A DNA stretch of 32,000 nt from Ruminococcus albus 7 = DSM 20455 (GTDB taxonomy: Bacteria; Bacillota; Clostridia; Oscillospirales; Ruminococcaceae). Below, piece by piece: positions 5,488 to 24,717 of the stretch. The stretch covers positions 3,060,001 to 3,092,000 of the forward strand of contig NC_014833.1 of assembly GCF_000179635.2 (NCBI RefSeq), read 5' to 3'. How positions within the stretch are numbered: position 1 is the first letter of the stretch; the number at the start of each line of letters is the position of its first letter. The position numbers and the translations under genes were made by a program. Below the pieces are notes generated by a model. That model did not search any database. It was not told the origin of the DNA and was given only the letters and a program-made list of their open reading frames with translations.

Positions 5488-6036
5488 TTATACTTCTTCA
5501 GATATGATGACTTTTGAACACGGATTTGTATTCACCATGTCAAGCCTTATCGCATACTCGAATATGGATGAGATGAAAGATAAATGATGTCGCATGGTCT
5601 TTTGCGACAGCGGTTTTCCGTTCCGCTTGTTAGCACCGGGCTTTGCAAGACTGTTTATGAATTTCTGAATGTCCCGAGCAGTTATCTTGTCGATGCGAAG
5701 ATGTCCAAGCGCAGGGATGACCCTGTCCGCAATGAGATGTTCAAGCTGAAGTGTAGTACTGCGGTGATTGAGTTCAGCATACTCAGTCGCCCACATCTCA
5801 ATTACTTTCTGGAACTTTACAGCCGATGTTACCTGACCATGTGCGCACTCCTCCTCGAACAGCACAGCCAAGCGCTGTACCTCTTTCTCTGCCTGTTTAG
5901 CAGACATATTTTCGGGTGGTTTCCATGTCCTGAACCGAACCATCTGCTTTCCGTGAACATCATAACCACAGTATGCACGAATGCGGTATGAAGTGACTTC
6001 GCCTTTCTTGTTTTTACGTTTTTCAATGTACGCCAT
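5488..6036 (-). pseudogene. Tyrosine recombinase/integrase, N-terminal half only (arm-binding and core-binding domains); catalytic domain missing
   Basis: MAYIEKRKNKKGEVTSYRIRAYCGYDVHGKQMVRFRTWKPPENMSAKQAEKEVQRLAVLFEEEC and ..RIDKITARDIQKFINSL..LSQKTMRHHLSFISSIFEYAIRLDMVNTNPCSKV are typical of Firmicute phage/ICE integrase N-termini. The ORF stops after 182 aa, 3 nt from the convergent stop of 5006..5484. No R/HxxR/Y catalytic region follows. Confidence 0.75.
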
Positions 6037-6069: not shown

Positions 6070-6127
6070 GATTTGTATCATAAATATATGAGATCTGTTA
6101 TCAATATACTGAAAGGAATTGATATAT

Positions 6128-9100
6128 ATGGATTTCCCGAAATTTGAATCGATACTGCTGCTATGTGCAGCTCCTAAAGAGGTAGCTGATGCTGCGGTTA
6201 AATGGCTGGATATTAACAAAGAGCGTGATTTTGGATTGCTCGAAAAGCTGTCCGAAATCGATAAAAGCAAAGTATTATTTTACAAAATCGATTTTTATGA
6301 ATATGTCAAACAAGAGATAATGCCTAACATCTGCGATGAACTATATCAGCGCTACATGATAATGGCATATAAGCTTCTTGACGCTTCTGCATACTGTCTT
6401 ATCAGTTTTTTACGTTATGAAGAATGGAAGCATATAAAAGAACTTTTCAGCAGAGAGATGGAAAATATATATGGTGATGAAGCGCCTGCGCGTATGTTGT
6501 CGGTTGACTGTGATGCATTTATAACATCAAGTCGTTATTTCAATATGCCTGATGATCCCGAACTTATACTTAAAGCAGCTGAGCTTACATCTGAGAAGCA
6601 CATGATAACAAAAGCATATCTTGCCGCAGCTGCCCTCGACCATATGTCTCTGCCGGATGACGGAAAACTTTCCAAAAAAGCAGAGATCGCAGTAACGATT
6701 ATTAAAAATGCTGTAAACAACAGTATAGAAAAAGATAACATATTTCTCCTTAATGCACTGGCAAATGCATCGTATTTTGATGAGGTTATAAAAGCGCATT
6801 TTGAAGAATATGCGGCAGCTAACGCCGAAGAACTCTGCAGCCTCATATCTCGTGGATCAACAGACATCGAGCGCGCAGCCGATGCATTGTTTGCTGTTGA
6901 AGGTACTTTCAGCAGAGATGTCCTATTCCAGTTGATGCGCTATGGTATAAATGAAAAACTGATGATCTCTGCTGCAAAAATGCAGACAGAGACTTTCAAA
7001 AAGCTTATTTTATGTAGAAAGAACACAACCGATCTTGTGAAAATGAATAGTGCACTGAAAACTGTAAGTCCTGATGAAGCTCTTAGTGATGACGCCATAA
7101 AAAATATATCCGATGACAAGATAATTGATGGAGTAGCTTCGTGCTACAAGGACGTTGAAAAAATAAAAGCATTCCTTAAAGATGAGATATCCTTTGATGA
7201 GGTATATCCGGCAATTAAAAGCACAAAACTGGAGTACACATCACCTTTGAAATCTAACTATATTCCAGTATACGGCATAGATGACTTTATACTGCGCTGT
7301 GTTGTCGTGCTGGGCGGAAGTGTGGGCAGATACAGTCATCATCTTAAAGAAATCACAGGTTTTTCAGATAACGATATACCGAGCCTGATAAACTGGTTTA
7401 ATTCACATGATGCAGATATGGCAAAAGCTCTGGATATATGCGGCGGGATAATTGATAATTGCTATTATCCCGAGGACCGAATAAAATTATTTGCTGATGC
7501 TTTATCGGAACGTACTGATGATATCGCAGCAGCAGATCTCTCAAAGTGTAATACAGTCGCAAAGTTCATTGCACTGAAACTTTTCGGGAATAATGAAACC
7601 AAATACCACAAAAGCATAATCGCCCTTGCAGGTGATACTTCAAAAGTTATACGTGATATCGTAATGGAAATAGTTATGCGTCACCCCGACTGGAACGATG
7701 ATATAAAAGTGCTGCTCACGTCAAAAAAATCATCGGCAAGAGAATTTGCTCTCAATGTGATCGAAAGACATGGTGCAAAGGCTTATATACAGGAGCTCAG
7801 AAAAGCTCTTGAAGCTGAAAAGACAGATAAACTGAAAGCTCGTATAGGCAGTATGCTCGCGGTGGTATCGGAAAACTTGGTCGTTGAAGATAAGGTCTCC
7901 GCCGAAGATACAGTAAAGGAAATGACCAAGGGCAAAAAGGCATCGAAGCTTGACTGGCTGTTCAAGGAGCCATTTTCACCTGTTCACATGAAAGATGGTT
8001 CGGTGGCAGATGAAAGCTATCTCAGGGCACTGATGCTCTGTTTTGCGAATTCGGTTGGTCTGAAAGATCCGAAAGCGGATATCATCACCGCTGAACTTGA
8101 TGAAAAAGATGTATGCAGATTGGCAAATGAGGTACTGGTGAGATGGCTTCAAACTTCTCCCGAAGTCAAATCTGAGTCGCTGGAGTTTTTTGAAGAGTTT
8201 ACGGGATTGGAAACTCTTGGTGCGCAGGCAAAATACAAATGGGTTCTGTACTTTGCGAGCGTATACGGCGGCAAAGAAGCACTTGAGGTGTTTGAAGATC
8301 TAATGTCCACATGGCCGCTGTGGCAGAAAGGCGCACTTGCAAAAGAGATACCCCATGCCATAGTTCTTAACGGCAGCAGCAGTTATATAATGTTGGTGGA
8401 AAAGATGTCCCGCAAACACAGATTCAACTCCATACGCAAAGCATCGGCAGATGCCCTGTTATGTGCTTCTGAGAAACTTGGTATAAGCAAAGAGGAATTT
8501 GCTGACCGCATGATCCCCGACCTTGATTTCGATAAAAATATGTGCAGGACTTTCGACTACGGCAGCAGACGGTTCGATGTATATATCACCCCTAAGCTGG
8601 AGCCCGAGATATACTGCGACGGCAAGAAACTGAAGACAATGCCCAAGCCAAGCGCAGATGAAGGAACTAAAGCAGCAGAGGTGTACAAGGAATTCACGGC
8701 GATGAAAAAGCTGATGAAGAATATCGTTGATGCGCAGAGAGTTCGTCTTGAAAACACTCTGCTTACCGCAAGAAACTGGACAGCGGAAAACTGGAAACAG
8801 ATATTTATGAAAAATCCCATAATGCACTGCTTTGCCATCGGTCTTATCTGGGGCGTATACAAGGACGGCAGGCTTGAAAGCAGTTTCAGATATCTTGATG
8901 ACGGCAGTTTGACAACTGTTGATGATGAGGAATTCACCTTAGCTGAGAACTCGGTCATCGGGCTTGTTCACCCTGTTGAACTCAGCGAAGAGGAATTGGA
9001 AAAATGGAAGCAGCAGCTGAAAGATTATGAGATAGCTCAGCCGTTTATACAGCTTGGCAGAGGTATATCCAGACCCACCGAAGAAGAAAAGGAGCAAAAC

Positions 9101-9433
9101 TTCATCGGACGTTTCAAGGGTAATGTTATCAAAAGCAGAGAATTTGTCTCGGCTATGAACAAGATCGGCTGGAGCAAGGGTAAAGTCGGAGACGGCGCAA
9201 TATTCGATGATTTTGTCAGAGAAGAGATTTTCAGCCGTAATGATGGTATCAGGGCGAGCCTTTTGCATTCGGGCATTCCCATTGAGGTATTCAGAGAAAA
9301 AGAGACTGACATCACGGTGGGTAAGCTGATATTTGAAACACTCCCGAAACAGGAATCCATAAAGATCGGTGATCTCAGCGACAGATATTTCAGCGAGATC
9401 ATGTACCAGCTGGGTAAAATATTTGCAGATTAA
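6128..9433 (+). CDS. Large helical-repeat protein with C-terminal DUF4132 (MolR/YehI-like) domain, 1101 aa
   Basis: ATG 6128 is preferred over the track start 6119 (RBS GAAAGGAA at 6111-6118). The C-terminal ~330 aa (DFDKNMCRTFDYGSRRFDVYITPKLEPEIYCDGKKLKTMPKP..QRVRLENTLLTARNWTAENWKQIFMKNPIMHCFAIGLIWGVY..VHPVELSEEELEKWKQQLKDYEIAQPFIQLGR) follows the DUF4132 pattern as I remember it. The N-terminal ~750 aa looks like HEAT-type helical repeats. Confidence 0.75.
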   Translation: MDFPKFESILLLCAAPKEVADAAVKWLDINKERDFGLLEKLSEIDKSKVLFYKIDFYEYVKQEIMPNICDELYQRYMIMAYKLLDASAYCLISFLRYEEWKHIKELFSREMENIYGDEAPARMLSVDCDAFITSSRYFNMPDDPELILKAAELTSEKHMITKAYLAAAALDHMSLPDDGKLSKKAEIAVTIIKNAVNNSIEKDNIFLLNALANASYFDEVIKAHFEEYAAANAEELCSLISRGSTDIERAADALFAVEGTFSRDVLFQLMRYGINEKLMISAAKMQTETFKKLILCRKNTTDLVKMNSALKTVSPDEALSDDAIKNISDDKIIDGVASCYKDVEKIKAFLKDEISFDEVYPAIKSTKLEYTSPLKSNYIPVYGIDDFILRCVVVLGGSVGRYSHHLKEITGFSDNDIPSLINWFNSHDADMAKALDICGGIIDNCYYPEDRIKLFADALSERTDDIAAADLSKCNTVAKFIALKLFGNNETKYHKSIIALAGDTSKVIRDIVMEIVMRHPDWNDDIKVLLTSKKSSAREFALNVIERHGAKAYIQELRKALEAEKTDKLKARIGSMLAVVSENLVVEDKVSAEDTVKEMTKGKKASKLDWLFKEPFSPVHMKDGSVADESYLRALMLCFANSVGLKDPKADIITAELDEKDVCRLANEVLVRWLQTSPEVKSESLEFFEEFTGLETLGAQAKYKWVLYFASVYGGKEALEVFEDLMSTWPLWQKGALAKEIPHAIVLNGSSSYIMLVEKMSRKHRFNSIRKASADALLCASEKLGISKEEFADRMIPDLDFDKNMCRTFDYGSRRFDVYITPKLEPEIYCDGKKLKTMPKPSADEGTKAAEVYKEFTAMKKLMKNIVDAQRVRLENTLLTARNWTAENWKQIFMKNPIMHCFAIGLIWGVYKDGRLESSFRYLDDGSLTTVDDEEFTLAENSVIGLVHPVELSEEELEKWKQQLKDYEIAQPFIQLGRGISRPTEEEKEQNFIGRFKGNVIKSREFVSAMNKIGWSKGKVGDGAIFDDFVREEIFSRNDGIRASLLHSGIPIEVFREKETDITVGKLIFETLPKQESIKIGDLSDRYFSEIMYQLGKIFAD

Positions 9434-9522
9434 AACAACGTATAGATATTTTGGATATAGATCAATCGGCAAACCATGCAAGATCCTTCCGTATTATCGT
9501 GAAGTAATATCGGAGTGAGAAC

Positions 9523-9822
9523 ATGATCGCATTGGAAACTATTAAATGCTTTGATAGTAAAGGAAAAATTCATTCTGAAGACGCGATGATTGAATACTTA
9601 AAAAATAATATTAGTGGTGAAAATGTAAAAAGAATATATAGTGAAAGAGAACCGTGTGTTCGTACCGAAACTAATCCAGATAATGATTGCGCACACCATA
9701 TTAATGATTATGCACCTGATGCCGAGGTTACTTACTCCTATGATTATGGAATAAAGGCGGAAGAAGGAAGGACTGCAAGGCTAGCCCTTAAAGAATTTTT
9801 GCGAGGTGTATTTGGCAAATGA
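9523..9822 (+). CDS. Stand-alone deaminase-fold (polymorphic-toxin-type nucleic-acid deaminase) domain protein, 99 aa
   Basis: RBS GGAGTGAG, with an in-frame stop 18 nt upstream. H17-S-E19 (KIHSEDAMIEYL) is followed ~25 residues later by E-P-C45 ... C56 (SEREPCVRTETNPDNDCAHHI) and then AEVTYSY. This order and spacing match the HxE / PC..C zinc motifs of toxin deaminases. Confidence 0.5.
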   Translation: MIALETIKCFDSKGKIHSEDAMIEYLKNNISGENVKRIYSEREPCVRTETNPDNDCAHHINDYAPDAEVTYSYDYGIKAEEGRTARLALKEFLRGVFGK

Positions 9823-10382
9823 GAAATGCTTTAATTAATTATTTTAACCGTACTTCATCAAATGAACAGTGGTGGAGTAAAGATGATCTTGATAAATTCG
9901 GAAAAGAATTTTACCCGTTCTTAAATAAAAAAATATATCTCATTGAAAGACGAGATAAAACGGATTTCACAATTTTAAAAAACAGATTCGGTTATGATAT
10001 TCCAAATGATATACAAGAATATATTAACTTGTTTTGGCACCCATATATCAAAGGCTTTTATAAGGAAGATGAGTGCATTATTCTGTTCCCAGTAATTAAA
10101 TATGATAATGAATCATGTGATGATGTACTTTATCATGAAAATGGCTTGATCAAGTTGGCTGATGAATGGGAATCTGTGTTTGAAGGAAATATACAGGAAT
10201 TTCTTCCTATAGGGTGGTTAGTCTATACAGGAAGATATGTTTTATATGAGATTAAAACAGGTAAAATTTATATAGAAAAGTATGGTTGTGAAGGTGTACC
10301 ATCTGAACGACCTATATCTAATTCTTTTACAGAATTGATAAATAATTTAAATATCGATAGTAGTATGAACGAATTAAATTGA
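9819..10382 (+). CDS. Syd-like / SUKH-superfamily immunity protein
   Basis: The ATG overlaps the deaminase stop (ATGA). DIQEYINLFWHPYIKGFYKEDECIILFPV...IQEFLPIGWLVYTGRYVLYEIKTGKIYIEKYG...RPISNSFTELINNL parallels the motif order of SecY-interacting protein Syd and SMI1/KNR4-type immunity proteins. Confidence 0.6.
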   Translation: MRNALINYFNRTSSNEQWWSKDDLDKFGKEFYPFLNKKIYLIERRDKTDFTILKNRFGYDIPNDIQEYINLFWHPYIKGFYKEDECIILFPVIKYDNESCDDVLYHENGLIKLADEWESVFEGNIQEFLPIGWLVYTGRYVLYEIKTGKIYIEKYGCEGVPSERPISNSFTELINNLNIDSSMNELN

Positions 10383-10404
10383 AACAGTAAAATAGGAGGA
10401 AATC

Positions 10405-10848
10405 ATGTATAAGATTGAGTCTGCTCAGAAAGAGCTTTGTGAGTACCTTATTAGTATTATGCCGGTTGAGTGGAAGAGAATTTGCTACTACTCAGAATGC
10501 ACTACGGGAAGTCGCACTTCATGGATAGCGTTGATCGAGGAAAAGACAGGAAGGATTTGTACGCAGGAAGCCTTTTGGAAAAGATATACTTCCTATCCGT
10601 ATGACGAAATGAAGGCTTATGTCATGCTTAACAAACTCACCCGTAATCTTTATAATGCTTATTTGGAGAAGTTTGGTGAGGATAAGATTTGGTGTACCTA
10701 CTACTTGACCATTGAAAGCGACTATACGTTTCACGTTGATTTTGGTTATGAAATGCCTGAAGGCGATATCGTAGAACAGCATGATGCTGTTTTTGAAAAG
10801 TTTTTTAATACTAAATATGAGTATCTTGAGGGTAAATATCCATATTGA
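10405..10848 (+). CDS. YezG/DUF600-like immunity protein
   Basis: RBS AGGAGGAA. MPVEWKRICYYSE...WCTYYLTIESDYTFHVDFGYEMPEGD...FEKFF matches the pattern of YezG-family antitoxins of LXG toxins (..mPeeW..i..yaE.., ..W..l.ltle..gkF.vdf.Ye..). Confidence 0.6.
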   Translation: MYKIESAQKELCEYLISIMPVEWKRICYYSECTTGSRTSWIALIEEKTGRICTQEAFWKRYTSYPYDEMKAYVMLNKLTRNLYNAYLEKFGEDKIWCTYYLTIESDYTFHVDFGYEMPEGDIVEQHDAVFEKFFNTKYEYLEGKYPY

Positions 10849-10929
10849 TACAGCATAAGTATCTGGTATTGAAGATCAACTTTGAATATGCTTCGGAAGT
10901 AGCATATTCCTAAAATAGTAGGAGAACTT

Positions 10930-11469
10930 ATGAATAATAACTACAAAAACCAATTCGTCAACATAAAACAACAAAAACTAGATAAAGAGAGAACTGCGTT
11001 CAGTAACTGTCGTTTGGATATGACCGATGTCAGCTTTGAAATAGGAAAAAGCAGTTATACTGCGAAGCTTTTCGGTTTTATCGTTTTATTTGCCATTTTC
11101 TTTGGAGGACGAATACTTGCAAGGCAATATGTAGGAAATCCGAATATGACATTCTCGGTGGGAGATATTATATTCTGGTGCTGTATAGGAATGATCGCCA
11201 TACTCGTCATTGTAACTTTCATCCATGAGAAAAACAAGCCCACTATATCTGTTTTGGGTAAAAAAATATTTTATAACGGAAACTGTTGGACAAGCGATGA
11301 TATTTCATTTGTCAGGTGTACGAAGTGGTTTGAGCGGGTCGAGGTTTACTCAAACGGTAAGAAAGTATTGACTTTCCCATGGGAATTGGATAATTCCGAG
11401 CTATTTATTGCTTGGGTCAACAAATGCGGGATAACATTTGAAGATCATCGTATGAAGGCTTTTCAATAA
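10930..11469 (+). CDS. Two-TM membrane protein with a cytoplasmic C-terminal domain, unknown function
   Basis: RBS TAGGAGAA. Hydrophobic segments are AKLFGFIVLFAIFFGGRILA and VGDIIFWCCIGMIAILVIVTFIH. It is part of the A+T-rich immunity-gene run. Confidence 0.6.
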   Translation: MNNNYKNQFVNIKQQKLDKERTAFSNCRLDMTDVSFEIGKSSYTAKLFGFIVLFAIFFGGRILARQYVGNPNMTFSVGDIIFWCCIGMIAILVIVTFIHEKNKPTISVLGKKIFYNGNCWTSDDISFVRCTKWFERVEVYSNGKKVLTFPWELDNSELFIAWVNKCGITFEDHRMKAFQ

Positions 11470-11576
11470 TCTAATAATAGTTGGCATTATTGCGACTATT
11501 CAAATTATACGATATAACAGATAATGGTGGAGATTTTGATATTATTCCAAAATCATAATTTTGATGGTGATACATT

Positions 11577-12380
11577 ATGAAAAAAACAATCCTAGTCATT
11601 ATAATGATAATAGCTATTACTGCAACAATTGTTTGTTGTATATTTTTTAACACCCACACAATTATAGGTAAAAAAGTTTATGACAACAAATCAACACGGT
11701 TAACTATCGATAAATTAACGCTTTACGATGATTTTGATAAGCTCAAACGACTTTCAAAATTAAAAGAGTTAATTTTTTCCAGAGATGATGTGACGAATAT
11801 TGATTTCCTTACAGAATTAAATGACTTGGATTATTTGTATCTAGAAACCCCTAATGTCACCGATTTTAAGCCGATTTCAAGCTGCGAAAAACTTAGCATT
11901 TTATCTACTTTTCGAACAAGTTTTTCCGATCTGAGTTTTCTATATAATAATCACAAACTAAAAAAACTTAAAATAATAAGCGATGACTTAGTATCACTTA
12001 ATGGACTGGAAGAACTCTATGAGCTCGAAGACCTGACTTCTTTTGCACCACATCTGAACGATATATCTGCACTAAAAGAAGCAAAACAAATCAAAAAAAT
12101 CATAATAACCACAAATGAAAATATTGATTTACAGTGTATATCCTGCTGTACTGATCTTATTGAACTAAGTTTGCATGGAGTGAAAAATTTAAGTACACTT
12201 TCAGTTGATGGTCTTGATAATTTACATCAGATAAATATAGCACATACTGATTTTACAAACTTTGAATCGTTGCTAAACCTCAAAAGTTTGAAAAAAGTGA
12301 TTGTATCAAATGGTCAGCTAAATGATGAAATAACAGGAGCACTTGAAGAAAAAGGGGTCAGCATAGAATACGTAGAATAA
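11577..12380 (+). CDS. Leucine-rich-repeat protein with an N-terminal membrane anchor or signal
   Basis: N-terminal TM is ILVIIMIIAITATIVCCIFF. It is followed by ~22-aa LRR units (LKELIFSRDDVTNIDFLTELNDLDYLYLE..., LKKLKIISDDLVSLNGLEELYELEDL...). Confidence 0.75.
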   Translation: MKKTILVIIMIIAITATIVCCIFFNTHTIIGKKVYDNKSTRLTIDKLTLYDDFDKLKRLSKLKELIFSRDDVTNIDFLTELNDLDYLYLETPNVTDFKPISSCEKLSILSTFRTSFSDLSFLYNNHKLKKLKIISDDLVSLNGLEELYELEDLTSFAPHLNDISALKEAKQIKKIIITTNENIDLQCISCCTDLIELSLHGVKNLSTLSVDGLDNLHQINIAHTDFTNFESLLNLKSLKKVIVSNGQLNDEITGALEEKGVSIEYVE

Positions 12381-12416
12381 TCTGATCAATGACCAATGAA
12401 CCACCAACACAACAAA

Positions 12417-12454
12417 AGCTCAGCGATATATTTGTCGCTGGGCTTTTGTGTTTT
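12417..12454 (+). terminator. Rho-independent terminator after the LRR gene
   Basis: Stem AGCTCAGCGA (12417-12426) / TCGCTGGGCT (12435-12444) with one G-U pair, followed by TTTGTGTTTT. Confidence 0.6.
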
Positions 12455-12479
12455 CTATCGGATAAGGATCGTGGTCTCC

Positions 12480-12707
12480 TTACTGGACCTTATTTGGACT
12501 TCGTTTCTGCCAAAGACTGCTTTAGACCACTTCAAATCACTTGAAACGCAGACCTCAGAAACGTCGCAACATCGTCGCCACCGTGGTCAGGTCAACTCCT
12601 GCTTCGATCTCAACCGATGCGAAGAAATGCCTGAAGCTGTGAAGTCCATAGAATGGGAAATTCCTGCGTTCACACTCCCGCATCATCCATTCGGTATCGA
12701 ATCCACA
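12480..12707 (-). pseudogene. Tyrosine recombinase C-terminal fragment (decayed)
   Basis: The minus-strand frame reads CGFDTEWMMRECERRNFPFYGLHSFRHFFASVEIEAGVDLTTVATMLRRF-stop (stop at 12555-12557). This matches the HxLRH..a....G.d...v...LGH box of tyrosine recombinases, but it is bounded by stops on both sides and the LGH..Y end is scrambled. Confidence 0.55.
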
Positions 12708-12910
12708 TCATACAAAGCGGCAAGAGCGAAGCTCATGTCTATCAAGAATGATGTAATCAAGGGTTTTAAGGCTTTCGGAGTCGAAGCGGAACTGCTTGAC
12801 GGCAAGTCCACAAGCTACACATCTAAGGGCAAAAAGACGATCGTCCGTCCTGAGATCCTGGAAAATCCGTACAATGGCAAGGTTTACTATCAGTGGAAAA
12901 CGGAGAGTGG

Positions 12911-12942
12911 TAAATAAAAAACAGCAAGGGTGTCCTTGCTGT
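12911..12942 (-). terminator. Rho-independent terminator for the isochorismatase-family gene
   Basis: Stem ACAGCAAGG (12921-12929) / CCTTGCTGT (12934-12942) with loop GTGT. On the minus strand it is followed by TTTTTTATTTA; on + only by TTTGGGG. Confidence 0.65.
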
Positions 12943-13067
12943 TTGGGGATAGCTTTACAAATTAGAATTTGTGTAGTTGGCGTTGGTGATATGTTTACTA
13001 TCAGACAGTACAATCGCCCCTGCGCAAGGCGTTCCGGGCACTGTGCCTGTCCGGTTATGCAGATCAG

Positions 13068-13601
13068 TCAGGATTTCTCATCCATCATCAAGCCGATTGC
13101 TTCATCAAATGAAATGCACTTGGCATATCTTCCATTCCATATGAATTCATTGTAGTACTTGTATGTCATTTCAGAATCCATGAACCGATTATCAAATGTA
13201 CTGTTCGTGTTTTCTGGCACAATCATTTCAAAGCCGTGTTCAAATCCGCTTTTAATCGTGGCATCAATGCAATACTCTGTTTGCAGTCCGATAATCACAA
13301 TGCTTTTTTCATTTTTTCGCTTCAAATATTCTGACAGGCCGGTATTGATAAAAGCACTGTTTACGTATTTATCAAAAATAGCCTCATTGTCAGCAGGGGT
13401 AAAATCAGCATATATTTCGTAGCCATCCTTTCCTCTTGTCAGCTCGCTGTCTGAACCGTCATCATGTCTTACGTAAATGACTTCAACATGATTCTTCCGG
13501 GCAGTATCAATCAGCTTTTTCACACTGGAAACAAACAGCTCAAACTGATACAGTCTGTTGTTTACGATCGCTTTTTGCGTATCAACAACCAAAAGCACCA
13601 C
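13068..13601 (-). CDS. Isochorismatase-family cysteine hydrolase
   Basis: Track ORF 13068..13817 trimmed to GTG 13601 (RBS AGGAG 8 nt upstream, in frame). VLLVVDTQKAIV...VEVIYVRHDD...IFDKYVNSAFINTGLSEYLKRKNEKSIVIIGLQTEYCIDATIKSGFEHGFEMIV carries the D, K and C (EYC) catalytic-triad contexts of the family. Confidence 0.8.
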   Translation of the reverse strand: MVLLVVDTQKAIVNNRLYQFELFVSSVKKLIDTARKNHVEVIYVRHDDGSDSELTRGKDGYEIYADFTPADNEAIFDKYVNSAFINTGLSEYLKRKNEKSIVIIGLQTEYCIDATIKSGFEHGFEMIVPENTNSTFDNRFMDSEMTYKYYNEFIWNGRYAKCISFDEAIGLMMDEKS

Positions 13602-13649
13602 AAAACCATCTCCTAAATTCCGATTTGTAGGGCAGTCAACCCGCCCATT

Positions 13650-14306
13650 ACTCACCCTTATTATACCAAACCGCCCCGAAAAAGTCAATCGCTTGCGGTG
13701 CTGAATCCAGAAAGGAGTGTTCATTATGAACAGTAACCAGCTTGCGGAAGTCGCAAAGTCAACGGGTATCACCATTGAACAGATCGCTGTCTGCCGCTTT
13801 GCACAGATGATGAACAAGAACTATGCTGATGCCAAGCGTTTCTGCAAGAGATTTCAGCGGTAGAAGTTCAGCATAATCGCTGCCATAGCTACTGTCCGTT
13901 TCGCTCCGTACCATCTGCAACGTATCGATGACCACCAACCGCAGGTCATCATGTTCAGACTTGAACTTTACTATCTGTTCTTCTCGCTGATGGTGTCTGC
14001 TTTCAGCGAGAAGAACAGCTTCTCCGATGGCTCATCGGTCAGTTCATACAGCCTGGATTGTATTCTCTGCCAGCTGTCCTCGAGACAAAAATACAGCGCC
14101 AAGCCTTGTCGTGTCGAACGATCAAGCAACTTTTCTCCTTTCGATATTGCAAGACATAGCTCAAGCGCAAGCTACGATTTCCCCACCTTTGGTGAGCCTG
14201 CAAGAATGTACAGTCCCTGCGTGATGAGTCCTTCTACTGCGAACACAGTCGGCTTGTAAAGCGTGGTCATGATCTCTTCGAACGTTTTGGTTTTCAGTTC
14301 TCTCAA
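13650..14306 (-). pseudogene. RepA-like AAA ATPase of a mobile element, inactivated
   Basis: RBS AAAGGAGG plus TTG 14306 gives LRELKTKTFEEIMTTLYKPTVFAVEGLITQGLYILAGSPKVGKS, then TAG (14172-14174) where family members have W. It continues LALELCLAISKGEKLLDRSTRQGLALYFCLEDSWQRIQSRL. After further stops and a frameshift it reads ..DDLRLVVIDTLQMVRSE.. and DYAELLPLKSLAETLGISIVLVHHLCKAADSD. The 3' limit is approximate. Confidence 0.6.
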
Positions 14307-14334
14307 TATATCGACCTCCTTTTCACTTGTATAC

Positions 14335-14604
14335 CAAGATCAAAATTTAGATTTGATTTATGAAGAAGGCTCGTTTGATAATTATGAAAGCGCTGAGATA
14401 TTGGAAAGCCCTTATTATATCAATAAGTATCTATATACTGATAGAGGATATGCGGAAGGATCGACAAACGATAATGAAAGTCAAGTATATGGTGTATATA
14501 ATGGCGTAACTGTTGGTGTAATAACTGATGCTAATGGCGGGCTGACCACGACTATCGGAACGATCTTTCCGGATAGTTTACAGAGATCAACAGGAGATTT
14601 TTGA
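14335..14604 (+). pseudogene. Possible C-terminal fragment of a secreted toxin (EndoU-like ending?), no start
   Basis: QDQNLDLIYEEGSFDNYESAEILESPYYINKYLYTDRGYAEGSTNDNESQVYGVYNGVTVGVITDANGGLTTTIGTIFPDSLQRSTGDF. The G-x-Y-x-G-x-x-V-x-V...G...TI-x-T-x-FP ending recalls bacterial EndoU-type toxin tips. The upstream part of track ORF 14263.. is antisense to the ATPase pseudogene leader. Confidence 0.3.
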
Positions 14605-14701
14605 TTGATATGATCGATACAAAAAAGGCTAGACTTTTGGTATCTGAGCGGCAAAGACCTGTTCTCCGCTACTTTTGGTGTGTTAAAAGTATAACCATAT
14701 A

Positions 14702-14758: not shown

Positions 14759-17245
14759 TTACTGTCCTTCATGGAAGAAAGAAGGAAGTGCATCGTAAAC
14801 ATAGTGTCTTACGTAGCCCCACCAGTGTGTTTTGCCTGATGCAACAAGGAAGTAGAGATTACCCTTGGAGAAGTCAGATGTGTAAACGAACTGGCTCATC
14901 TTCTTCATTTCATTGATCTGAGGATTTACGTTGGGATAAGCTATATCGTCCGAACCTGTTGCTGCGAAGATGAAGTACTGATTCTTCTGAAGACCTGATC
15001 TGTCTATCGCATTGGCTATGGACTTAGCCTTATCGTAACCGGAGTTTCCGTTCCAGTGGTCGCCGCTGAGAGGCATGAAGTAGCCGACGATGTCAAGGCA
15101 GTTCTCCATTACAGCCCATGTTGAAACGCCACCCATCGAGAATCCGCCGTATGCTCTGTGCATTCTTGAAGCCTGGAGCGATGACTGTGAAGTATTTCTG
15201 CCTGCATAGGTAGAATATTTTCCTTCAACGAAAGGAACAACGCTCTGACGGAACTCGTTGTAGAATTTGCCTGCCTCAGTCTTGTTGAAGGTAGGTGTAA
15301 CAACGATCAGAGGATCGAGTTCGCCGTTCTTTATCATGTTGTCGAAGAGATTCTGCATCATTGTATCATCCTGATAGAACAGAGTATTCTCATTCTCTCC
15401 GCCGCCGTGCATCAGGTAGAAGATGTTGTACTTCTTGCTGCTGTCATAGCCGTAGGGGAGATATACATTAAGTGAGTTATATCCGTTGATGCCGTTATAG
15501 GATTCCTTTACTACCTTGCCGGCCTGTGAGCAGCTGTTGAAATAGTAGCCGGGAGCTTCCTTGAACTGCATATTTGATGCGTAGTTATAAGAAGATGTCT
15601 CAGGCTGCTGATTGTTGTTAGTGTTTGTGTTTGTATTAGTATTAGTATTTGTGTTTGTGTTAGAAGGTGTGTGATACTGAATGTTGTTGTAGGATCTGGT
15701 CGTAACAACAACATAGTTGTCAATAGCAGCTGTAGTATCCCACTTGCCGTTTACTCTAGCAGCGATAGCTACCTTGTAAGACATACCGGGTGTCAGTCCC
15801 TTGGGAGTAGTGTAGGAAGTACCGGAGATGTTGGAATCCTGAACTCTCCACTTGCCTGCCAGGTATACTGCGATGCCGTACTTGTCAGCGCCATTTACAG
15901 CGTCCCAAGTAAATCTCATCTGCTTGTACTGGCTGTTGTATTCCATCTTTACGTTGGAAGGAACATTAGCATTGTTGTATACCGGGGTATCACCGGAAGC
16001 AACATAGCCCTTGTCTGCGATTATAGCTCTGTCAACATAGATGTCGCACAGGCTGTCGGGAGCTTCAACATACATCTTTACATTGGATGCGCCCGAAGGT
16101 ATTGTGAAGCTGGTGTTTTCCAGCTTGGTCCACTTGCCTGCTGTGCAGGAACCCTCAGCTATCTGAGTGTACTTTGTAGTACCGTTCTGATCATACTGCA
16201 TGGAAAGCTGAACAGTTGTGCTCTCGGCAGGATTTACCATAGCGCTGAAGCTGTAGGAGTTGCCGGGCTTGAAAGTAGATGTATTGACTTCTACTTCGCC
16301 GCCGTTCCAGTTAGCAGTTCTGCCGCTTACATACAGGGACTTACTGCCCTCATAAGCCTTGGAAGAAGATGATGCTACACTAGCAGAACCTCTGCCGCTC
16401 CAGTAATTGGTACCGTTCTCGAATGTAGCTGAGTACAGTGTACCTTCGATCTCCGACTCCTCCGGCTCGGGATCGGGATGGTAGCCACTTTCGCCCTCAT
16501 ACATATTCAGAGTAACATCAGCCTGACCGTCGGACTCCCAGCCTTCAACGTTGAAAGCAACTTCGTACAGGTTGCCCATCTTCATACCCATGGACTCCCA
16601 AACCTTGAAGTGCTCGGAAACGCTGATGGTACCCTTGGTTCTCAGGTTCTGACGGATGCTTATATACTGTGTGAAGTTCTTGTTGCCTTCAATGGTGTAA
16701 GAATTTCTGCTGGTAGTATATACCTTGTATACACTGCCGTCGATAGTGGTCTGACCCTTGTACTGTGCAGAACCGTCCTGTGCAGGTGACCAGTTCTTCC
16801 AGTCCTCGATGATGTAGTACTCTACCAGAGGATTCTGTGCCCAGCCGTAGATACAGATACGGGAGTTACCGGATGAACCTGCATACCAGCTGCAATCGTA
16901 GTCACAGTAGAAAGGCTTATAATCCTTATATGTCTTGGGGTTATTCAGGCCCCAGTACAGACCACGACGTGCAAGGAAGTTACCTCTCGAGTTGTTAGGT
17001 CCGCACTTCCACTGTGTGCTGAAACCGCCGTCATTATCGTGCAGTGTCATTGTAGAAGAGTTTGGGGTATCTGCCTGCCAGATCTCATGGTGGTAGTCAT
17101 TGTACCAGCCGACTTCCTGTGTGTGTGACGGGCTCGTAGTGAGTGTCTTAGCAGCAGATGCTGTAACTGATGATATAATAGGTGAAACCATCAGCACTCC
17201 GGCAACAAAAGCGCTGGCAATACGCTTTGAAACGGGTTTCTTCAT
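14759..17245 (-). CDS. Multidomain xylanase/esterase: signal peptide, GH11, CBM22-like (CBM_4_9), Fn3-like module, (Thr-Asn)n linker, CE1-type esterase; no dockerin
   Basis: GH11 motifs are NPLVEYYIIEDW and YEVAFNVEGWESDGQADV. The CBM reads NGTNYWSGRGSASV..GRTANWNGGEV..GKWTKLENTSFTIP..MYVEAP. The esterase reads YNIFYLMHGGGENENT and GGFSMGGVSTW. The N-terminal signal is KRIASAFVAGVLMVSPIISSVTASA. Confidence 0.9.
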   Translation of the reverse strand: MKKPVSKRIASAFVAGVLMVSPIISSVTASAAKTLTTSPSHTQEVGWYNDYHHEIWQADTPNSSTMTLHDNDGGFSTQWKCGPNNSRGNFLARRGLYWGLNNPKTYKDYKPFYCDYDCSWYAGSSGNSRICIYGWAQNPLVEYYIIEDWKNWSPAQDGSAQYKGQTTIDGSVYKVYTTSRNSYTIEGNKNFTQYISIRQNLRTKGTISVSEHFKVWESMGMKMGNLYEVAFNVEGWESDGQADVTLNMYEGESGYHPDPEPEESEIEGTLYSATFENGTNYWSGRGSASVASSSSKAYEGSKSLYVSGRTANWNGGEVEVNTSTFKPGNSYSFSAMVNPAESTTVQLSMQYDQNGTTKYTQIAEGSCTAGKWTKLENTSFTIPSGASNVKMYVEAPDSLCDIYVDRAIIADKGYVASGDTPVYNNANVPSNVKMEYNSQYKQMRFTWDAVNGADKYGIAVYLAGKWRVQDSNISGTSYTTPKGLTPGMSYKVAIAARVNGKWDTTAAIDNYVVVTTRSYNNIQYHTPSNTNTNTNTNTNTNTNNNQQPETSSYNYASNMQFKEAPGYYFNSCSQAGKVVKESYNGINGYNSLNVYLPYGYDSSKKYNIFYLMHGGGENENTLFYQDDTMMQNLFDNMIKNGELDPLIVVTPTFNKTEAGKFYNEFRQSVVPFVEGKYSTYAGRNTSQSSLQASRMHRAYGGFSMGGVSTWAVMENCLDIVGYFMPLSGDHWNGNSGYDKAKSIANAIDRSGLQKNQYFIFAATGSDDIAYPNVNPQINEMKKMSQFVYTSDFSKGNLYFLVASGKTHWWGYVRHYVYDALPSFFHEGQ
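15611..15664 (-). repeat. Hexanucleotide coding microsatellite encoding the (Thr-Asn)n linker
   Basis: GTGTTT/GTATTA units on + encode SNTNTNTNTNTNTNTNNNQQ on the minus strand. Confidence 0.8.
15698..15964 (-). repeat. Fn3-like ~85-aa module, copy in the GH11 protein (internal)
   Basis: PSNVKMEYNSQYKQMRFTWDAVNGADKYGIAVYLAGKWRVQDSNISGTSYTTPKGLTPGMSYKVAIAARVNGKWDTTAAIDNYVVVTT. Confidence 0.75.
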
Positions 17246-17827
17246 AAACTAATTACCTCGCTTTCTAAAAAGATTAAAACTATAAACCATAAAATAAATA
17301 CTTAAATGATACGGCACATTGACTCTTGCGCTTCAATGTTAACTGCTATATCATTTGATTATATTTTATAATTTATTAGTCATTGGTTCTAATCAAATTT
17401 TGCTCATTGTGATATAGGCAGCACCAAAAATTGCGATTTTCACCTTTGGTACATTAATTATTTACTATTTAAATTATAATTATCGAAAATCTTTTAATCT
17501 TTTCCGAAATAATCATTTAACACATAAAAGCCCTGAATTGCGCAATTCCAACCGATCAACAGCATAAAAAATGTATGTTCACAAACAAGGATCCACCTGA
17601 CATTAATGTAATTTTTATGTCAAATTCTTAACATCTTTCGCGCTAATATTGAGAAGTTGAAAACCGTTCATCATGATCAGAGTTTCAGTTGGAAAATATG
17701 CGAAGATAAATACATTACCTGAATATTATAACTCCGCAGCACACGATCGACACCACCACCTATAAAAACTCCTACGATATTTCAGCGTTTTTTCTTTAGC
17801 CTTTTTTTGCGTTATTTATCATTATAC

Positions 17828-17872
17828 AGAAAAAGAACAGGTAACAGCGACTGTGTCGGCTGTGACCTGCTC
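17828..17872 (-). terminator. Candidate terminator downstream of the GH53 gene
   Basis: Long imperfect hairpin GAACAGGTAACAGCGAC (17835-17851) / GTCGGCTGTGACCTGCTC (17855-17872). On the minus strand it is followed by TTTTTCTG. Confidence 0.45.
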
Positions 17873-18007
17873 TTTGTGTTTATTCTGCTTTTCTCTTCCT
17901 GCCCTCTGTCATGATATCAGCCAACGCTCACAGCGCCTGAGCTTCACGATCCCGAAGGGCTGCGGCATAGATATCAAGTGTAACATACCATAAGCCACAT
18001 CTTTTTA

Positions 18008-19573
18008 TCACTTGAGTTCAAAGCTCCTGCTCTTGCCAATAAGATCCATACCGCTTCCATGCTTGTTGGAAAGATATCTGTCCAGCAGGATGATATCATT
18101 GATATCCACCTTTTTATCAGCATTGACATCGCCTACCGCGAACTGCTCATCATCAAGCTTGCATTTTTTTATTACGGCATTTTTCAATAGCGTGAGATCA
18201 GATCTGCTAAGCGAGCCGTCACCGTCGAGATCGCCGTACAGACGGGTCTTCCATTTAATTTCGGGCTTATTTTTTTTCGGGTAAATACGGGTGAATACAT
18301 CAAGCGACTCAAGAGGATAGCCCCTGAAATCGAACAGTGCCTGATTATCAAAGGATGAACCTCCTGCCGAAGTGACGTCCTGATCGTACTCAGATGCATA
18401 AGATGATGCCCAGCCCGAACCGTATCTGTCCCAGTTATCTCTCTGCTGCGACTGCGAAATACCGCTGACACCCAGCCATGCAGGCTCCCAGTAGAATACG
18501 CCTATACCCTTTCCGCCGCAGTTTGCGATCGCCTGAAATGCATCTGTCAGGGACTCTGCCTGTCCTTCAACGGATATATCATAGTCAAGATCAACACCCG
18601 TAGACCATTGTGAGATAGTATTGCCGAATCCGTCACTATCATCGGAGGTATACGGATATGCCGTTTCAGCGACCATGACGTATTTGTTGTATGTGTTGCC
18701 AATGGTACTCAGCACGTTTGTGAGGTTTTCAGGTGTGCCGTGCCAGTACGGATAGAAAGATGCGGCAAATACATCGTAATCGAGCTTGCATTCGTTCATG
18801 ATCTTTGCATACCAGTAGAAGTGATCTGCTTTTGCAGGATTTGCAAAATGATGAGCGATCAGGATATTCCTGTCAAAGTCACGCACCGCCTTGTTACCGC
18901 TTGCAAACAGCTCACATATCTTATACATATCCGTTTCGCCGCAGAAGAAGCAGTTTGTCTCGTTGCCCACCTGTACCATACCTATATCGCCGCCCGCCTC
19001 TGTGATAGCTGTCAGCACCCAGGTAGTCCATTTGTATATCTCTCCCGAAAGGGTATTGTGATCGTGAGAAGCCCAGTATTTCGGGCGTGTCTGCTTGGCA
19101 GGATCAGCCCAGAAATCCGAATACTGAATGTCCACCAGCAGCTTCATACCATATTTTGCCGCACGTCTGCCGATCTCACAGGCAGTTTTCACATCGTTGT
19201 TTCCGCCGCCGTATCCGTGACCTTTACCGTCATTCGGTTCGTTCCAAACACGTACACGGATGTAGTTCACATCATGGTCGTAAAGCACACGGAATATATC
19301 TTCCTCATTTCCCTTATCGTCATGGAAAACTACTCCTGCCTCCTCGATAGCTAAAATGGAAGAAATATCCACGCCGCGGATAGGCTCACCGCCATTTACC
19401 GCCGCAGGGAAAGTATCAAAGGTGACGCTCCTGTTATAAGAAGAAGTTCCCGCCCGAGAATAAGCAGATGATGTCATAAGATTTGCGGACGATGTCATCA
19501 TCAGTACAGATGCTGTCAGTGCCGCACAGATCTTCACTGAACGCTGAAATATTTTAGTATTCATAACACTCAT
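18008..19573 (-). CDS. GH53 arabinogalactan endo-beta-1,4-galactanase with C-terminal type I dockerin
   Basis: Start moved to ATG 19573 (RBS AGAGAGGAA). GH53 motifs are RGVDISS, NYIRVRVWNEP, LLVDIQYSDFWADPAKQTRPKYW, VQVGNETN, FYPYWHG and VAETAYPY. The dockerin is GDLDGDGSLSRSDLTLLKN...GDVNADKKVDINDIILLDRYL. Confidence 0.9.
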   Translation of the reverse strand: MSVMNTKIFQRSVKICAALTASVLMMTSSANLMTSSAYSRAGTSSYNRSVTFDTFPAAVNGGEPIRGVDISSILAIEEAGVVFHDDKGNEEDIFRVLYDHDVNYIRVRVWNEPNDGKGHGYGGGNNDVKTACEIGRRAAKYGMKLLVDIQYSDFWADPAKQTRPKYWASHDHNTLSGEIYKWTTWVLTAITEAGGDIGMVQVGNETNCFFCGETDMYKICELFASGNKAVRDFDRNILIAHHFANPAKADHFYWYAKIMNECKLDYDVFAASFYPYWHGTPENLTNVLSTIGNTYNKYVMVAETAYPYTSDDSDGFGNTISQWSTGVDLDYDISVEGQAESLTDAFQAIANCGGKGIGVFYWEPAWLGVSGISQSQQRDNWDRYGSGWASSYASEYDQDVTSAGGSSFDNQALFDFRGYPLESLDVFTRIYPKKNKPEIKWKTRLYGDLDGDGSLSRSDLTLLKNAVIKKCKLDDEQFAVGDVNADKKVDINDIILLDRYLSNKHGSGMDLIGKSRSFELK

Positions 19574-19702
19574 GGTTATTCCTCTCTTTACTGTTTGTAT
19601 CATCGCCGTTTTGGCAATCATATTATAACAGCAATTTCGTCACTTGTCAACCTCAAAAAATATCACGCTTTCTGTGCACGTATCAAAAATACCGCCTGTC
19701 GT

Positions 19703-19744
19703 ATACACAAAAGACCACAGACGCATATCCGCATCTGTGGTCTT
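19703..19744 (-). terminator. Rho-independent terminator after the SGNH-dockerin gene
   Basis: Perfect 11-bp stem AAGACCACAGA (19711-19721) / TCTGTGGTCTT (19734-19744). On the minus strand it is followed by TTGTGTATAC. Confidence 0.6.
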
Positions 19745-19774
19745 ATAGCTTTTATGTGGAACACTCTGCTCTTA

Positions 19775-21580
19775 TCATGCAAGAGCCCTGATATTCTTTA
19801 CCTGTGCCGCAATAAGCACAACATCAGTAATATTTATATTGCCGTTGTGATCCGCATCTGCACAAGCCGTACCTTTTTCAAGGATATTATTGCCCTTTAC
19901 ATACGAAGCCGCAAATGCGATATCCGATACGTTCACAACACCGTCACCGTTTATATCACCGATAACACCTTTATCTTCACCCGCACTTACTTCAGCGCCG
20001 TCAGATATTGTAGTGTCATCAGCCACAGGCTGCTTACCGCCATTCATTCTTGCTTCGGCAGTTTTGGAAATATCAGCAAACAGTATATCAGCTATTTCCT
20101 TATGTCCGTTGGCATTTGGGTGAGGGTCAAAGTCTGTTTCGGGCGAGATGTTGTATACATCAACATATACCGCACCTGTTTCAGCTGCTATGGCTTTCAG
20201 CTTCTCGTTAAGCAGCTTTATCTGAGGGTCAACGTTCTTCCCTGCCATCTGCATAGCAACAGGCTCAGCTATCTGCTGTGCAAAAGCCTTAGCCTCAGCT
20301 GCAGCTTCTGAATTGCTGAACTGTCCGATTATCTCTGCCACATCAGGAAGCTCGCTTACGTCCGCACCGCTGCTTATAACACCGATGATATTCCTGAGTT
20401 CTTCTATGTCCACATACTCACCGAGCAGATCGTTCAGCGCCTTGATATCTGCCATGTTCTCATCTGTTGCAAGTGCAGCAAGGTTCTTCTTTAACTGATC
20501 TATATCCTCAGCCAGTGTGAAGGCATCTATTACCTTTGTCATCTTCTCGTAGTCAAACACCTTATCCAGTGCCGCCTTCAGCTCTATGATCTTGTTTACC
20601 TTATCGTTGATATTCTCGGTGAATTCCTTGGTAGGCTCACCCTTTGCATCGGTCTGATCCTCTGTTTCCGCTGCGGCATCAGATGCCTCTGCAAACAGCG
20701 GTCCGATAACGGAGAATATATCCTCCTGTATATCTTCTGATCCTTCTGCTGTGCGGTAAGGGTTGAACAAACTTACAAGAGCGATATCAGCTTCACCGTT
20801 CACTTCCTGTACAGCCTTTACAACGCCCTTTACCTGCTCTGCAGAGTTGTTGACCATATTCTCCGCATTCTCGCCCACGTTCTTCATATAGTTTGCAGCC
20901 TCAAGGAAAGCATCTGCTGTTACCTTGTCCTTTTCCTCGTTTATCACCTGTAAGCCGGCACCGACTGCTACTTCGGGCTCAGCCCCGAACAGTGTCATCA
21001 TAAGTGACATAGCAGATGCCTTGATAACAGGATTCTCACTCTGCAGCATCTCAGGTATTATGCTCATGATGATATCATTTCCGCCAAGCTGTATGCTCAC
21101 AAGGTCAGCCTCTGTAAGATAACTTGTATAGATATCGTGGTACGGAGCCAGTACTTCGCTTGTTCCCTTTCCCACAAAGCTTTCGAGTATCTGTGAAGCA
21201 AATTCACCCTTGTAGCCTGCCTGTCTGATGACCTTCTCTATATCAGCCGCACGGAATGCAGTTGAAGCCAGATTTGTACCCTTCACTTCAACACCGTTCT
21301 TTTCACCCAGTTCCTTCAGGTATCCTGTGAATATTGCAGGGTATGCACCCTTTACAGGGTCAGCCAGCAGCTTATCGGTTATCACCAGTGCAGGGTCGCC
21401 CATAATACCCTTGTCCTTGTTAAGACCATAGCCCGCTGCGATACTGTCACCCAGCGCTACATAGTTATAGGTCTTTTTTTCTGCAGCCTTTTCCTCATTT
21501 TCAGCAAATGCCGAGATCCCTGCAGTTGTGCTCAGCATAGCTGCTGCTGTCAGCACCGATAATATCTTATTTCCTCTCAT
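19775..21580 (-). CDS. Secreted SGNH/GDSL-family hydrolase with a long acidic helical insert and a C-terminal dockerin
   Basis: Signal peptide is ILSVLTAAAMLSTTAGISAFA. Block I is YVALGDSIAAGYG, block III is IQLGGNDI, and block V is DFDPHPNANGHKEIA. The dockerin is GDINGDGVVNVSDIAFAASYV...ADADHNGNINITDVVLIAAQV. The RBS AAGGAGG lies inside the 3' end of the upstream gene. Confidence 0.85.
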   Translation of the reverse strand: MRGNKILSVLTAAAMLSTTAGISAFAENEEKAAEKKTYNYVALGDSIAAGYGLNKDKGIMGDPALVITDKLLADPVKGAYPAIFTGYLKELGEKNGVEVKGTNLASTAFRAADIEKVIRQAGYKGEFASQILESFVGKGTSEVLAPYHDIYTSYLTEADLVSIQLGGNDIIMSIIPEMLQSENPVIKASAMSLMMTLFGAEPEVAVGAGLQVINEEKDKVTADAFLEAANYMKNVGENAENMVNNSAEQVKGVVKAVQEVNGEADIALVSLFNPYRTAEGSEDIQEDIFSVIGPLFAEASDAAAETEDQTDAKGEPTKEFTENINDKVNKIIELKAALDKVFDYEKMTKVIDAFTLAEDIDQLKKNLAALATDENMADIKALNDLLGEYVDIEELRNIIGVISSGADVSELPDVAEIIGQFSNSEAAAEAKAFAQQIAEPVAMQMAGKNVDPQIKLLNEKLKAIAAETGAVYVDVYNISPETDFDPHPNANGHKEIADILFADISKTAEARMNGGKQPVADDTTISDGAEVSAGEDKGVIGDINGDGVVNVSDIAFAASYVKGNNILEKGTACADADHNGNINITDVVLIAAQVKNIRALA

Positions 21581-24670: not shown

Positions 24671-24717
24671 GAAAAATAATAACTCAAAATAATTCACATT
24701 TAGCGCTTCAGCCTCAC

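Follow-up and report, generated by a model that had tools for sequence, protein, structure and literature searches.

A truncated deaminase toxin domain and a probable orphan immunity gene in Ruminococcus albus 7

Polymorphic toxin systems are diversified by stand-alone cassettes, and orphan cassettes have been described (Zhang et al. 2012, PMC3482391). The displacement of effectors, with retention of their immunity genes and of the 3' ends of the old effectors, is also a known model (Kirchberger et al. 2017, PMC5361080). The toxin domain that concerns us belongs with the XOO_2897-like deaminases, a clade in the Helix-4 division that is related to AID/APOBEC and to OTT_1508 (Iyer, Zhang & Aravind 2011, PMC3239186). 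[quoted passage not shown] Members of the corresponding Pfam family (PF14440) are reported to deaminate cytidine in single-stranded DNA when they are fused to nCas9 (bioRxiv 10.1101/2023.05.21.541555). The deaminase clade, the PT-HINT polymorphic toxins, orphan cassettes, and orphan immunity genes were all described already. What is new here is a subgroup of PF14440 in Clostridia of the gut and rumen, together with its partner family of immunity proteins, which was previously unnamed and is caught by no curated model.

We analyzed a 32-kb window (i.e., the whole stretch of 32,000 nucleotides of the R. albus 7 genome) in which an ORF of 99 amino acids is followed by an ORF of 187 amino acids. 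We think it quite likely that these are a decaying orphan toxin tip and a retained orphan immunity gene. The features that we will refer to are:

5488..6036, - strand: N-terminal fragment of an integrase
6119..9433, co-directional with the genes below: gene for a DUF4132 protein, upstream of the remnant
9418..9522, + strand: open stretch in the deaminase frame, 5' of the ATG, broken by a TAA at 9505-9507
9523..9822, + strand: remnant ORF, 99 aa with an ATG start; a cytosine deaminase toxin domain of the XOO_2897-like type that is truncated at its N-terminus
9819..10382, + strand: putative cognate immunity gene, 187 aa, from a family with sub-threshold similarity to SUKH-1; its start overlaps the stop of the remnant (ATGA)
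10405..10848, + strand: YezG-like immunity-type gene, 147 aa (matches PF04634 with E = 1.9e-6 and a score of 28.6 bits, where the cut-off is 21.7)
10930..11469, + strand: membrane protein with weak similarity to DUF6560, also present at loci L002 and L008
11577..12380, + strand: leucine-rich-repeat (LRR) protein whose N-terminus has a hydrophobic segment; its gene is the final one in the co-directional block
12412..12449, + strand: strong intrinsic-terminator-like hairpin (a 17-bp stem and then a run of T) that closes the block

Between 9 and 12 kb, the GC content drops to 33%, as opposed to 45-50% in the flanks. The YezG-like gene belongs to this co-directional, low-GC array and has no toxin gene alongside it. 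A promoter scan of 9300-12600 gave no signal above that of shuffled sequence. No N-terminal module of a toxin was found among those ORFs of the window that we scanned against Pfam, and we did not find a full-length or resident toxin gene in the 32 kb. The window also encodes a GH11 xylanase as well as GH53 and GDSL enzymes with dockerins, and these genes suggest a host of the cellulosomal Clostridia type.

A deaminase domain without its first helix and strand

The 99-aa ORF had been picked out by a sequence-only reading as a candidate toxin with the deaminase fold, and its basic description is accurate. A Shine-Dalgarno-like GGAG (9512-9515) lies 7 nt before its ATG, the in-frame TAA at 9505-9507 starts 18 nt 5' of the ATG, and its stop and the start of the 187-aa ORF overlap as ATGA at 9819-9822. 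The translation contains H17-S18-E19, E43-P44-C45, E49, and C56, with 10 residues separating C45 and C56, and also the segment A67-EVTYSY-73. Its single match in Pfam by hmmscan is to PF14440 (XOO_2897-deam) with E = 2.6e-11 and 43.9 bits, and the curated cut-off for this family is 27 bits. We also built a family HMM, of length 147, without the window's sequence, and the ORF scores 125 bits against it (E about 1e-40). The H, the E, the P-C, and the C are invariant across our alignment of 31 deaminase sequences. A search of PDB sequences with the 99-aa ORF gave zero matches.

For the fold, we turned to a complete homologue, P0002, which has 126 amino acids and is 57% identical to the 99-aa ORF. 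The AlphaFold2 model of P0002 (from the 31-sequence alignment) has a pLDDT of 93.3 and a pTM of 0.85, and it has four strands and a long helix at the end. In order, its elements are a helix at 2-10, strands at 19-25 and 31-37, a helix at 44-54, a strand at 62-69, a helix at 83-90, a strand at 95-100, and a helix at 106-124. When we compared the model to the PDB with Foldseek, all of the top 50 matches were cytidine-deaminase folds (APOBEC3H, APOBEC3B, AID, CDA, and DddA), with E values from 8e-4 and TM-scores of 0.4-0.56. Given the match to PF14440 above its cut-off, the model of P0002, and these structural matches, we take the 99-aa ORF to be a genuine deaminase homologue of the XOO_2897-like clade, in the Helix-4 division. 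The earlier assignment to the YwqJ-like or SCP1.201/DddA-like clades was mistaken, as those two belong to the C-terminal hairpin division. The 10-residue gap between the cysteines, which had seemed unusual, is the insert of the XOO_2897-like clade and is typical of it: the consensus of this region in the PF14440 relatives is EREPCV.T.TN..H(N/D)C. Similarly, AEVTYSY had been read as a terminal strand; judging from the model of P0002, it is Strand-4, with the long Helix-4 after it. The aromatic segment that follows Strand-4 in the 99-aa ORF is Y73-D-Y75.

The 99-aa ORF is not the whole domain. In the alignment to PF14440, its residues 10-84 correspond to positions 22-93 of 101, and it covers positions 53-145 of the 147 in our family HMM, while complete relatives cover 1-144. 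Because it starts at profile position 22 and at family-HMM position 53, it is a fragment of a family member. More specifically, M1 aligns to residue 27 of P0002 (alignment A1, an offset of 26 residues), so the ORF begins after Helix-1 (residues 2-10 of P0002) and Strand-1 (residues 19-25), both of which are missing. Strand-2, Helix-2 with the HSE motif, Strand-3, the PC...C zinc ligands, Helix-3, Strand-4, and Helix-4 are kept. In other words, the ORF begins essentially at Strand-2, and the complete deaminase core is not present. Since the sheet order is 2-1-3-4, a product without Strand-1 would lack the central strand. From these alignments, we consider the 99-aa ORF to be an N-terminally truncated remnant of the tip of a deaminase toxin.

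Some observations run counter to the remnant reading: all three of the zinc and catalytic motifs are intact, the frame is open for 99 codons, and the GGAG is well spaced. The 99-aa product may be translated and may retain some function.

What lies upstream of the ATG is less clear. The stretch 9418..9522 may once have been the 5' part of the toxin domain and have decayed since, or it may be the junction at which the domain was truncated. By eye, ..RSFRIIVK*YRSEN resembles the Strand-1 region of the family (..GRNVCVVEY.D), with the TAA at a conserved Glu. Extending the family HMM alignment through the TAA (IVK*Y against vvEY) adds only 0.8 bit, and the stretch upstream of the ATG scores -0.8 bit on its own, so the homology is not significant. 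With a gain of just 0.8 bit, we do not claim that a nonsense mutation at the Glu of Strand-1 was the origin of the truncation. The route may have been a nonsense mutation followed by decay, a deletion, or a junction from illegitimate recombination.

Large toxins and their neighbors in related bacteria

A word-indexed search of 5.8 billion protein clusters found only two relatives, and we obtained 61 from an exhaustive HMMER search, which covered 1.84 billion representatives. Among these 61, the deaminase domain is almost always at the extreme C-terminus, and complete matches occur in proteins of up to 1617 amino acids. Some of the long proteins bear matches to eCIS-core or weak, sub-threshold matches to VgrG-like domains (Phage_GPD). 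The relatives with the architecture of a large toxin are L006 (with PT-HINT), L011, L012, P0015, P0018, and P0033, and toxin relatives occur in metagenome-assembled genomes (MAGs) of Ruminococcus and Lachnospiraceae.

The most telling loci were reached through the neighboring gene. In three lineages, the gene after a complete toxin encodes a homologue of the window's 187-aa protein. First, at L006/L007, a toxin ORF of at least 500 amino acids contains PT-HINT (E = 3.5e-24), which a linker joins to a deaminase that is complete (profile 2-94). The deaminase of L006 is 67% identical to the 99-aa ORF, and the stop of the toxin overlaps the start of P0005, a homologue that shares 53% identity with the 187-aa protein. 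Second, at L011 (a Lachnospiraceae MAG), an ORF of 935-965 amino acids ends in a complete deaminase, and the next protein, of 179 amino acids, shares 41% identity with the 187-aa protein of the window (E = 1e-55). The third lineage is L032. More broadly, toxin sequence and immunity homologue are paired in the window and at L002-L004, L006/L007, L008, L011, L013, L014, L026, and L032, and the identities of the two proteins co-vary across loci. Because homologues lie directly 3' of complete toxins in three lineages and because of this co-variation, we infer from gene context that the 187-aa protein is the cognate immunity protein.

The sequence-only reading called the 187-aa protein Syd/SUKH-like. 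That similarity is not directly visible in the window's copy, as it has no match in Pfam or NCBIfam at E ≤ 1. We scanned 12 diverse members of the family, and SUKH-1 (PF09346, SMI1_KNR4) was matched by 8 of them. These matches extend across positions 3-124 of the 125 in the profile, with E values of 7.8e-4 to 0.03, and at 15-18 bits they are below the cut-off of 25.4 bits. One of the 12 members matched SUKH_6 (E = 0.006), and none matched Syd (SUKH-2, PF07348) at E ≤ 1. Similarity to SUKH-1 shows up below threshold and in relatives only, and for the Syd part of the description we see no support. In Brevibacillus and Paenibacillus, the genes that come after the XOO_2897 toxins encode SUKH-4 proteins, and an hhalign comparison of our immunity family to these neighbors was not significant (E = 0.11-0.25). 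Searching PDB sequences with the family profile at E ≤ 10 gave nothing but one chance-level match. The AlphaFold2 model of the 187-aa protein was built from 4 sequences and has a pLDDT of 41.5, and Foldseek returned only noise (E > 1) for this model. The immunity family likely belongs to the SUKH superfamily.

Members of the immunity family occur at about 55 loci from metagenomes, many of which come from the human gut, and three bacterial MAGs have members as well. We found none in GTDB genomes, plasmids, or viral contigs. A scan of viral contigs with the deaminase gave one marginal match. No link of the pair to phage or plasmids is evident.

The complete 126-aa protein P0002 is encoded at L001 as an orphan. 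Immediately before it are the genes for another PT-HINT toxin and that toxin's putative immunity protein, and this is the classical layout of an orphan cassette. This raises the idea that the DNA of the remnant and its immunity gene is a silent cassette, which would recombine onto the gene of a resident full-length toxin and switch the toxin's type. There is precedent in orphan cdiA-CT/cdiI modules and Rhs tips (the work of Koskiniemi, as it is cited in PMC5361080), and polymorphic toxins are known to diversify by stand-alone cassettes (Zhang et al. 2012, PMC3482391). The cassette of L001 is complete. The window's version has neither the opening third of the toxin module nor a homology arm from the pretoxin region, and it could restore a working toxin only by recombining with a closely related deaminase toxin. 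Also, the 32-kb window contains no resident toxin gene onto which it could recombine (the upstream gene encodes DUF4132), and disabling changes accumulate in the relatives. We consider a silent cassette to be quite unlikely.

Decay of the toxin piece beside intact immunity genes

The most similar locus, L008, is about 99% identical to the window over 9.4-10.4 kb and 92% identical across the whole aligned stretch of 4.2 kb, and it has the DUF4132 gene upstream, as in the window. In L008, codon 26 of the remnant has become a premature stop (TTA>TAA), and the remnant also has a 3-nt insertion and the substitutions L4W and D20Y. The 187-aa gene of L008 is intact and has just three substitutions relative to the window's copy.

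At L002-L004, the similarity to the window begins no earlier than codon 27, which leaves these loci without the HSE motif. At L003, the end of an IS1595-family element abuts the deaminase remnant: the 142 nt just before the remnant match positions 24531-24672 of the window with 100% identity. In the window, these positions form the outer end of an IS1595-family element, which has its transposase gene at 23682..24557. In more distant lineages (L013 and L014), stubs of 74-88 amino acids or frameshifted copies precede intact homologues of the immunity gene. Altogether, immunity homologues adjoin remnants on their 3' side at L002-L004, L008, L013, L014, and L026. Thus, an intact immunity gene next to a truncated or disabled piece of toxin is found repeatedly, and the state of the toxin piece varies among strains.

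We also surveyed, with both HMMs, 54 metagenomic loci that contain an immunity homologue along with the loci that we had fetched earlier. Complete toxins were present in three lineages and remnants in six. At about 40 loci, the immunity gene was present and the deaminase signal was absent. Decay of this kind follows the pattern already known from displaced effectors whose immunity genes stay behind as orphans (PMC5361080) and from the orphan toxin cassettes of polymorphic toxin systems (PMC3482391).

Could the 99-aa ORF instead be one half of a self-contained pair, i.e., a reduced deaminase that is expressed from its own ribosome-binding site and held in check by the 187-aa protein? The sequence-only reading offered this as one of two alternatives, the other being an orphan tip left by cassette displacement. 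A complete stand-alone orphan does exist, but it is the 126-aa P0002, which has the Helix-1 and the central Strand-1 that the window's copy lacks. The ATGA coupling to the 187-aa gene would suit a pair, but an overlap of this type is found with a full-length toxin (at L006), and the remnant would have inherited it. And although the frame is open, the ATG has a GGAG 7 nt upstream, and the HSE and PC...C motifs are intact, we found no second form of about 99 amino acids among the 5.8 billion clustered proteins or the 1.84 billion representatives. Instead, the short matches to the deaminase are either N-terminally longer than the 99-aa ORF or are stubs that are truncated further; the closest relative has a premature stop and others are cut at codon 27, with the immunity gene kept. 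So we think that a self-contained pair is very improbable, and it is the orphan tip that agrees with our results: the homologues occur as the tips of longer toxins and the window's copy is without essential strands, an outcome that the sequence-only reading had itself named as counting against its proposal. We would put even less weight on the more specific proposal that the 99-aa product is a working reduced deaminase, with its sheet completed by a homodimer or a partner, and that it and the 187-aa protein make up an autonomous pair of the toxin/antitoxin type. If this proposal were true, then the 99-aa product would be the smallest known scaffold for a nucleic-acid deaminase. In a milder version, which we also consider improbable, the remnant frame would be kept by selection, because translation through it drives the expression of the immunity gene.

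Proposed history and comparison with known systems

We return to the preferred reading, a decaying orphan toxin tip with a retained orphan immunity gene. The intact ancestor would have been a large secreted polymorphic toxin with a tip domain of about 125-145 residues and, in some cases, a self-cleaving PT-HINT module. Its tip, a zinc deaminase of the XOO_2897 clade, would presumably deaminate cytosine in the DNA of the target cell. The next gene, which overlaps or abuts the stop of the toxin, would encode a protein of about 180 amino acids that binds the deaminase and so protects the producing cell and its kin from it. At the locus in the window, the body of the toxin is gone, and so are Helix-1 and Strand-1, which made up the first 26 or so residues of the catalytic domain. 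This loss, presumably by displacement or by deletion, left a 99-codon open frame with an ATG and a GGAG that are there by chance. [quoted passage not shown]

The part under selection would be the intact 187-aa gene. It may serve as orphan immunity against neighbors that fire the complete toxin, and if neighbors still deploy the toxin, this would explain why the immunity gene was kept after the body of the toxin was lost. The 187-aa gene sits together with a second orphan immunity-type gene, the YezG-like one, in a low-GC block that was probably acquired horizontally. The remnant frame may aid the expression of the immunity gene via translational coupling.

These results have a few implications. 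For annotation, a toxin remnant that has all of its catalytic motifs and a ribosome-binding site looks like a tiny stand-alone enzyme, so the spotting of motifs will overcall by itself. A toxin remnant beside an intact immunity gene is a common outcome of the turnover of toxin genes and is not a new miniature enzyme. For base editing, the sequence-only reading had suggested that very compact deaminases such as this one might be useful scaffolds. We do not agree, as the 99-aa ORF is a fragment without Helix-1 and Strand-1. PF14440 has already been mined for base editors, and the useful objects here would be the complete domains of about 125-145 amino acids (i.e., P0002 and the tips of L006 and L011). 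Finally, the locus adds a case from Gram-positive Clostridia of the gut and rumen to the orphan immunity genes that outlive their toxins.

How does the locus compare to known systems? Like other members of the XOO_2897 clade (PF14440), the 99-aa ORF has HxE in Helix-2 and aromatic residues after Strand-4, and it ends after Helix-4 and has no Strand-5. Also as in that clade, polymorphic toxins have the domain at their C-terminal end, and immunity genes of the SUKH type are neighbors. [quoted passage not shown]

Compared to the SUKH superfamily (SMI1/KNR4, or SUKH-1; Syd, or SUKH-2; and SUKH-4), the immunity proteins have a similar length of about 180 amino acids and are encoded directly 3' of a toxin that targets nucleic acids, and most members match SUKH-1 (PF09346) over its full length, below threshold. 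Unlike the described SUKH families, this family is below the Pfam cut-offs throughout, has no match to Syd, and has no significant match to the profile for SUKH-4.

As with DddA/DddI and SsdA-type toxins, the family combines an interbacterial toxin that has the deaminase fold with an adjacent immunity gene, and structures of DddA (6u08 and 8e5d) are among the Foldseek matches of the P0002 model. DddA itself is SCP1.201-like and is from the C-terminal-hairpin division, and its similarity to the 99-aa ORF is undetectable at the sequence level.

The closest parallels for the arrangement as a whole are the arrays of T6SS immunity genes in Vibrio cholerae (Kirchberger et al. 2017), orphan cdiA-CT/cdiI modules, and Rhs tips, in which an intact immunity gene follows the 3' piece of a former toxin. 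As in the V. cholerae arrays, the gene in the window is co-directional with other immunity genes and the region is mosaic between strains. Unlike those arrays, it is in a Gram-positive host of the cellulosomal Clostridia type, and it follows a DUF4132 gene instead of a visible secretion or toxin locus.

A mosaic of identity around the deaminase remnant

We compared window positions 7257..11434 with the corresponding stretch of a related metagenomic contig, L008:2818-6999, and found that similarity along the alignment is a mosaic. Within the DUF4132 gene, at 7.2-7.8 kb, the two sequences diverge strongly (36-80 differences per 200 nt), and they do so again at 10.4-10.8 kb, in the YezG-like gene (34-36 differences per 200 nt). 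In the 7.8-10.4 kb stretch, identity is 94.5-100% in each 200-nt bin. This suggests that the segment carrying the truncated deaminase and its immunity gene recombined recently. The DUF4132 gene is directly upstream of the immunity-type genes in the window and in L008 alike.

6119..9433 (+), DUF4132 protein of 1104 aa; the domain is C-terminal (E 3.9e-50)

Traces of mobile elements

Two features of the window are related to mobile elements:

5488..6036 (-), integrase-like ORF of 182 aa; of the domains of phage-type integrases, it has the N-terminal SAM-like one and the central one alone
23682..24672 (-), IS1595-family element: outer end and transposase gene, whose product has a zinc ribbon and matches PF12762 (E 1e-21)

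The first lacks the catalytic domain of phage-type integrases. It probably represents an integrase that has been cut short and marks the old edge of a mobile element beside the DUF4132 gene. As for the second, the outer end, at 24531-24672, matches positions 1-142 of another metagenomic contig, L003, with 100% identity; there, this sequence abuts a deaminase remnant that has been cut back more severely than the window's. One IS family, IS1595, appears to be active around deaminase/immunity modules.

Related toxins and immunity proteins

The full-length toxins at L011:5565-8372 and L006:3-1505 share a conserved pre-toxin region, which reads ..NAGRIV(I/T)IPE..I(T)..DW.G.GY...P.TGAGAYM(L/I)SGGL.. 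and has hydrophobic segments after it. Pfam contains no model that matches this conserved region, and it could be a trafficking or pretoxin module of Clostridia toxins that has yet to be described. Also, an immunity-family variant of about 175 aa recurs in human-gut metagenome contigs (L037, L038, L040-L048, L052, and L053). An internal deletion at positions 121-152 of the immunity-family HMM removes the conserved PIGW...LYE hairpin, and the variant could be an immunity allele, widespread across human gut samples, that has degraded.

Downstream DNA and the host

Between the terminator (12412-12449) and the xylanase gene, the region 12400..14700 contains numerous short ORFs, which overlap and lie on both strands. 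Of the small ORFs that we tested from it, none had a Pfam match. This stretch resembles decayed accessory DNA. It also includes this gene:

13068..13817 (-), isochorismatase-family gene with a long N-terminal extension

Beyond it is a group of genes for plant-cell-wall degradation, at 14759..21580 (-), within which are:

(-), GH11 xylanase that also carries CBM4_9, an (NT)n linker, and an esterase domain
(-), GH53 galactanase bearing a type I dockerin
(-), dockerin-bearing GDSL esterase

These genes indicate that the host is a cellulosome producer among the Clostridia, similar to Ruminococcus.
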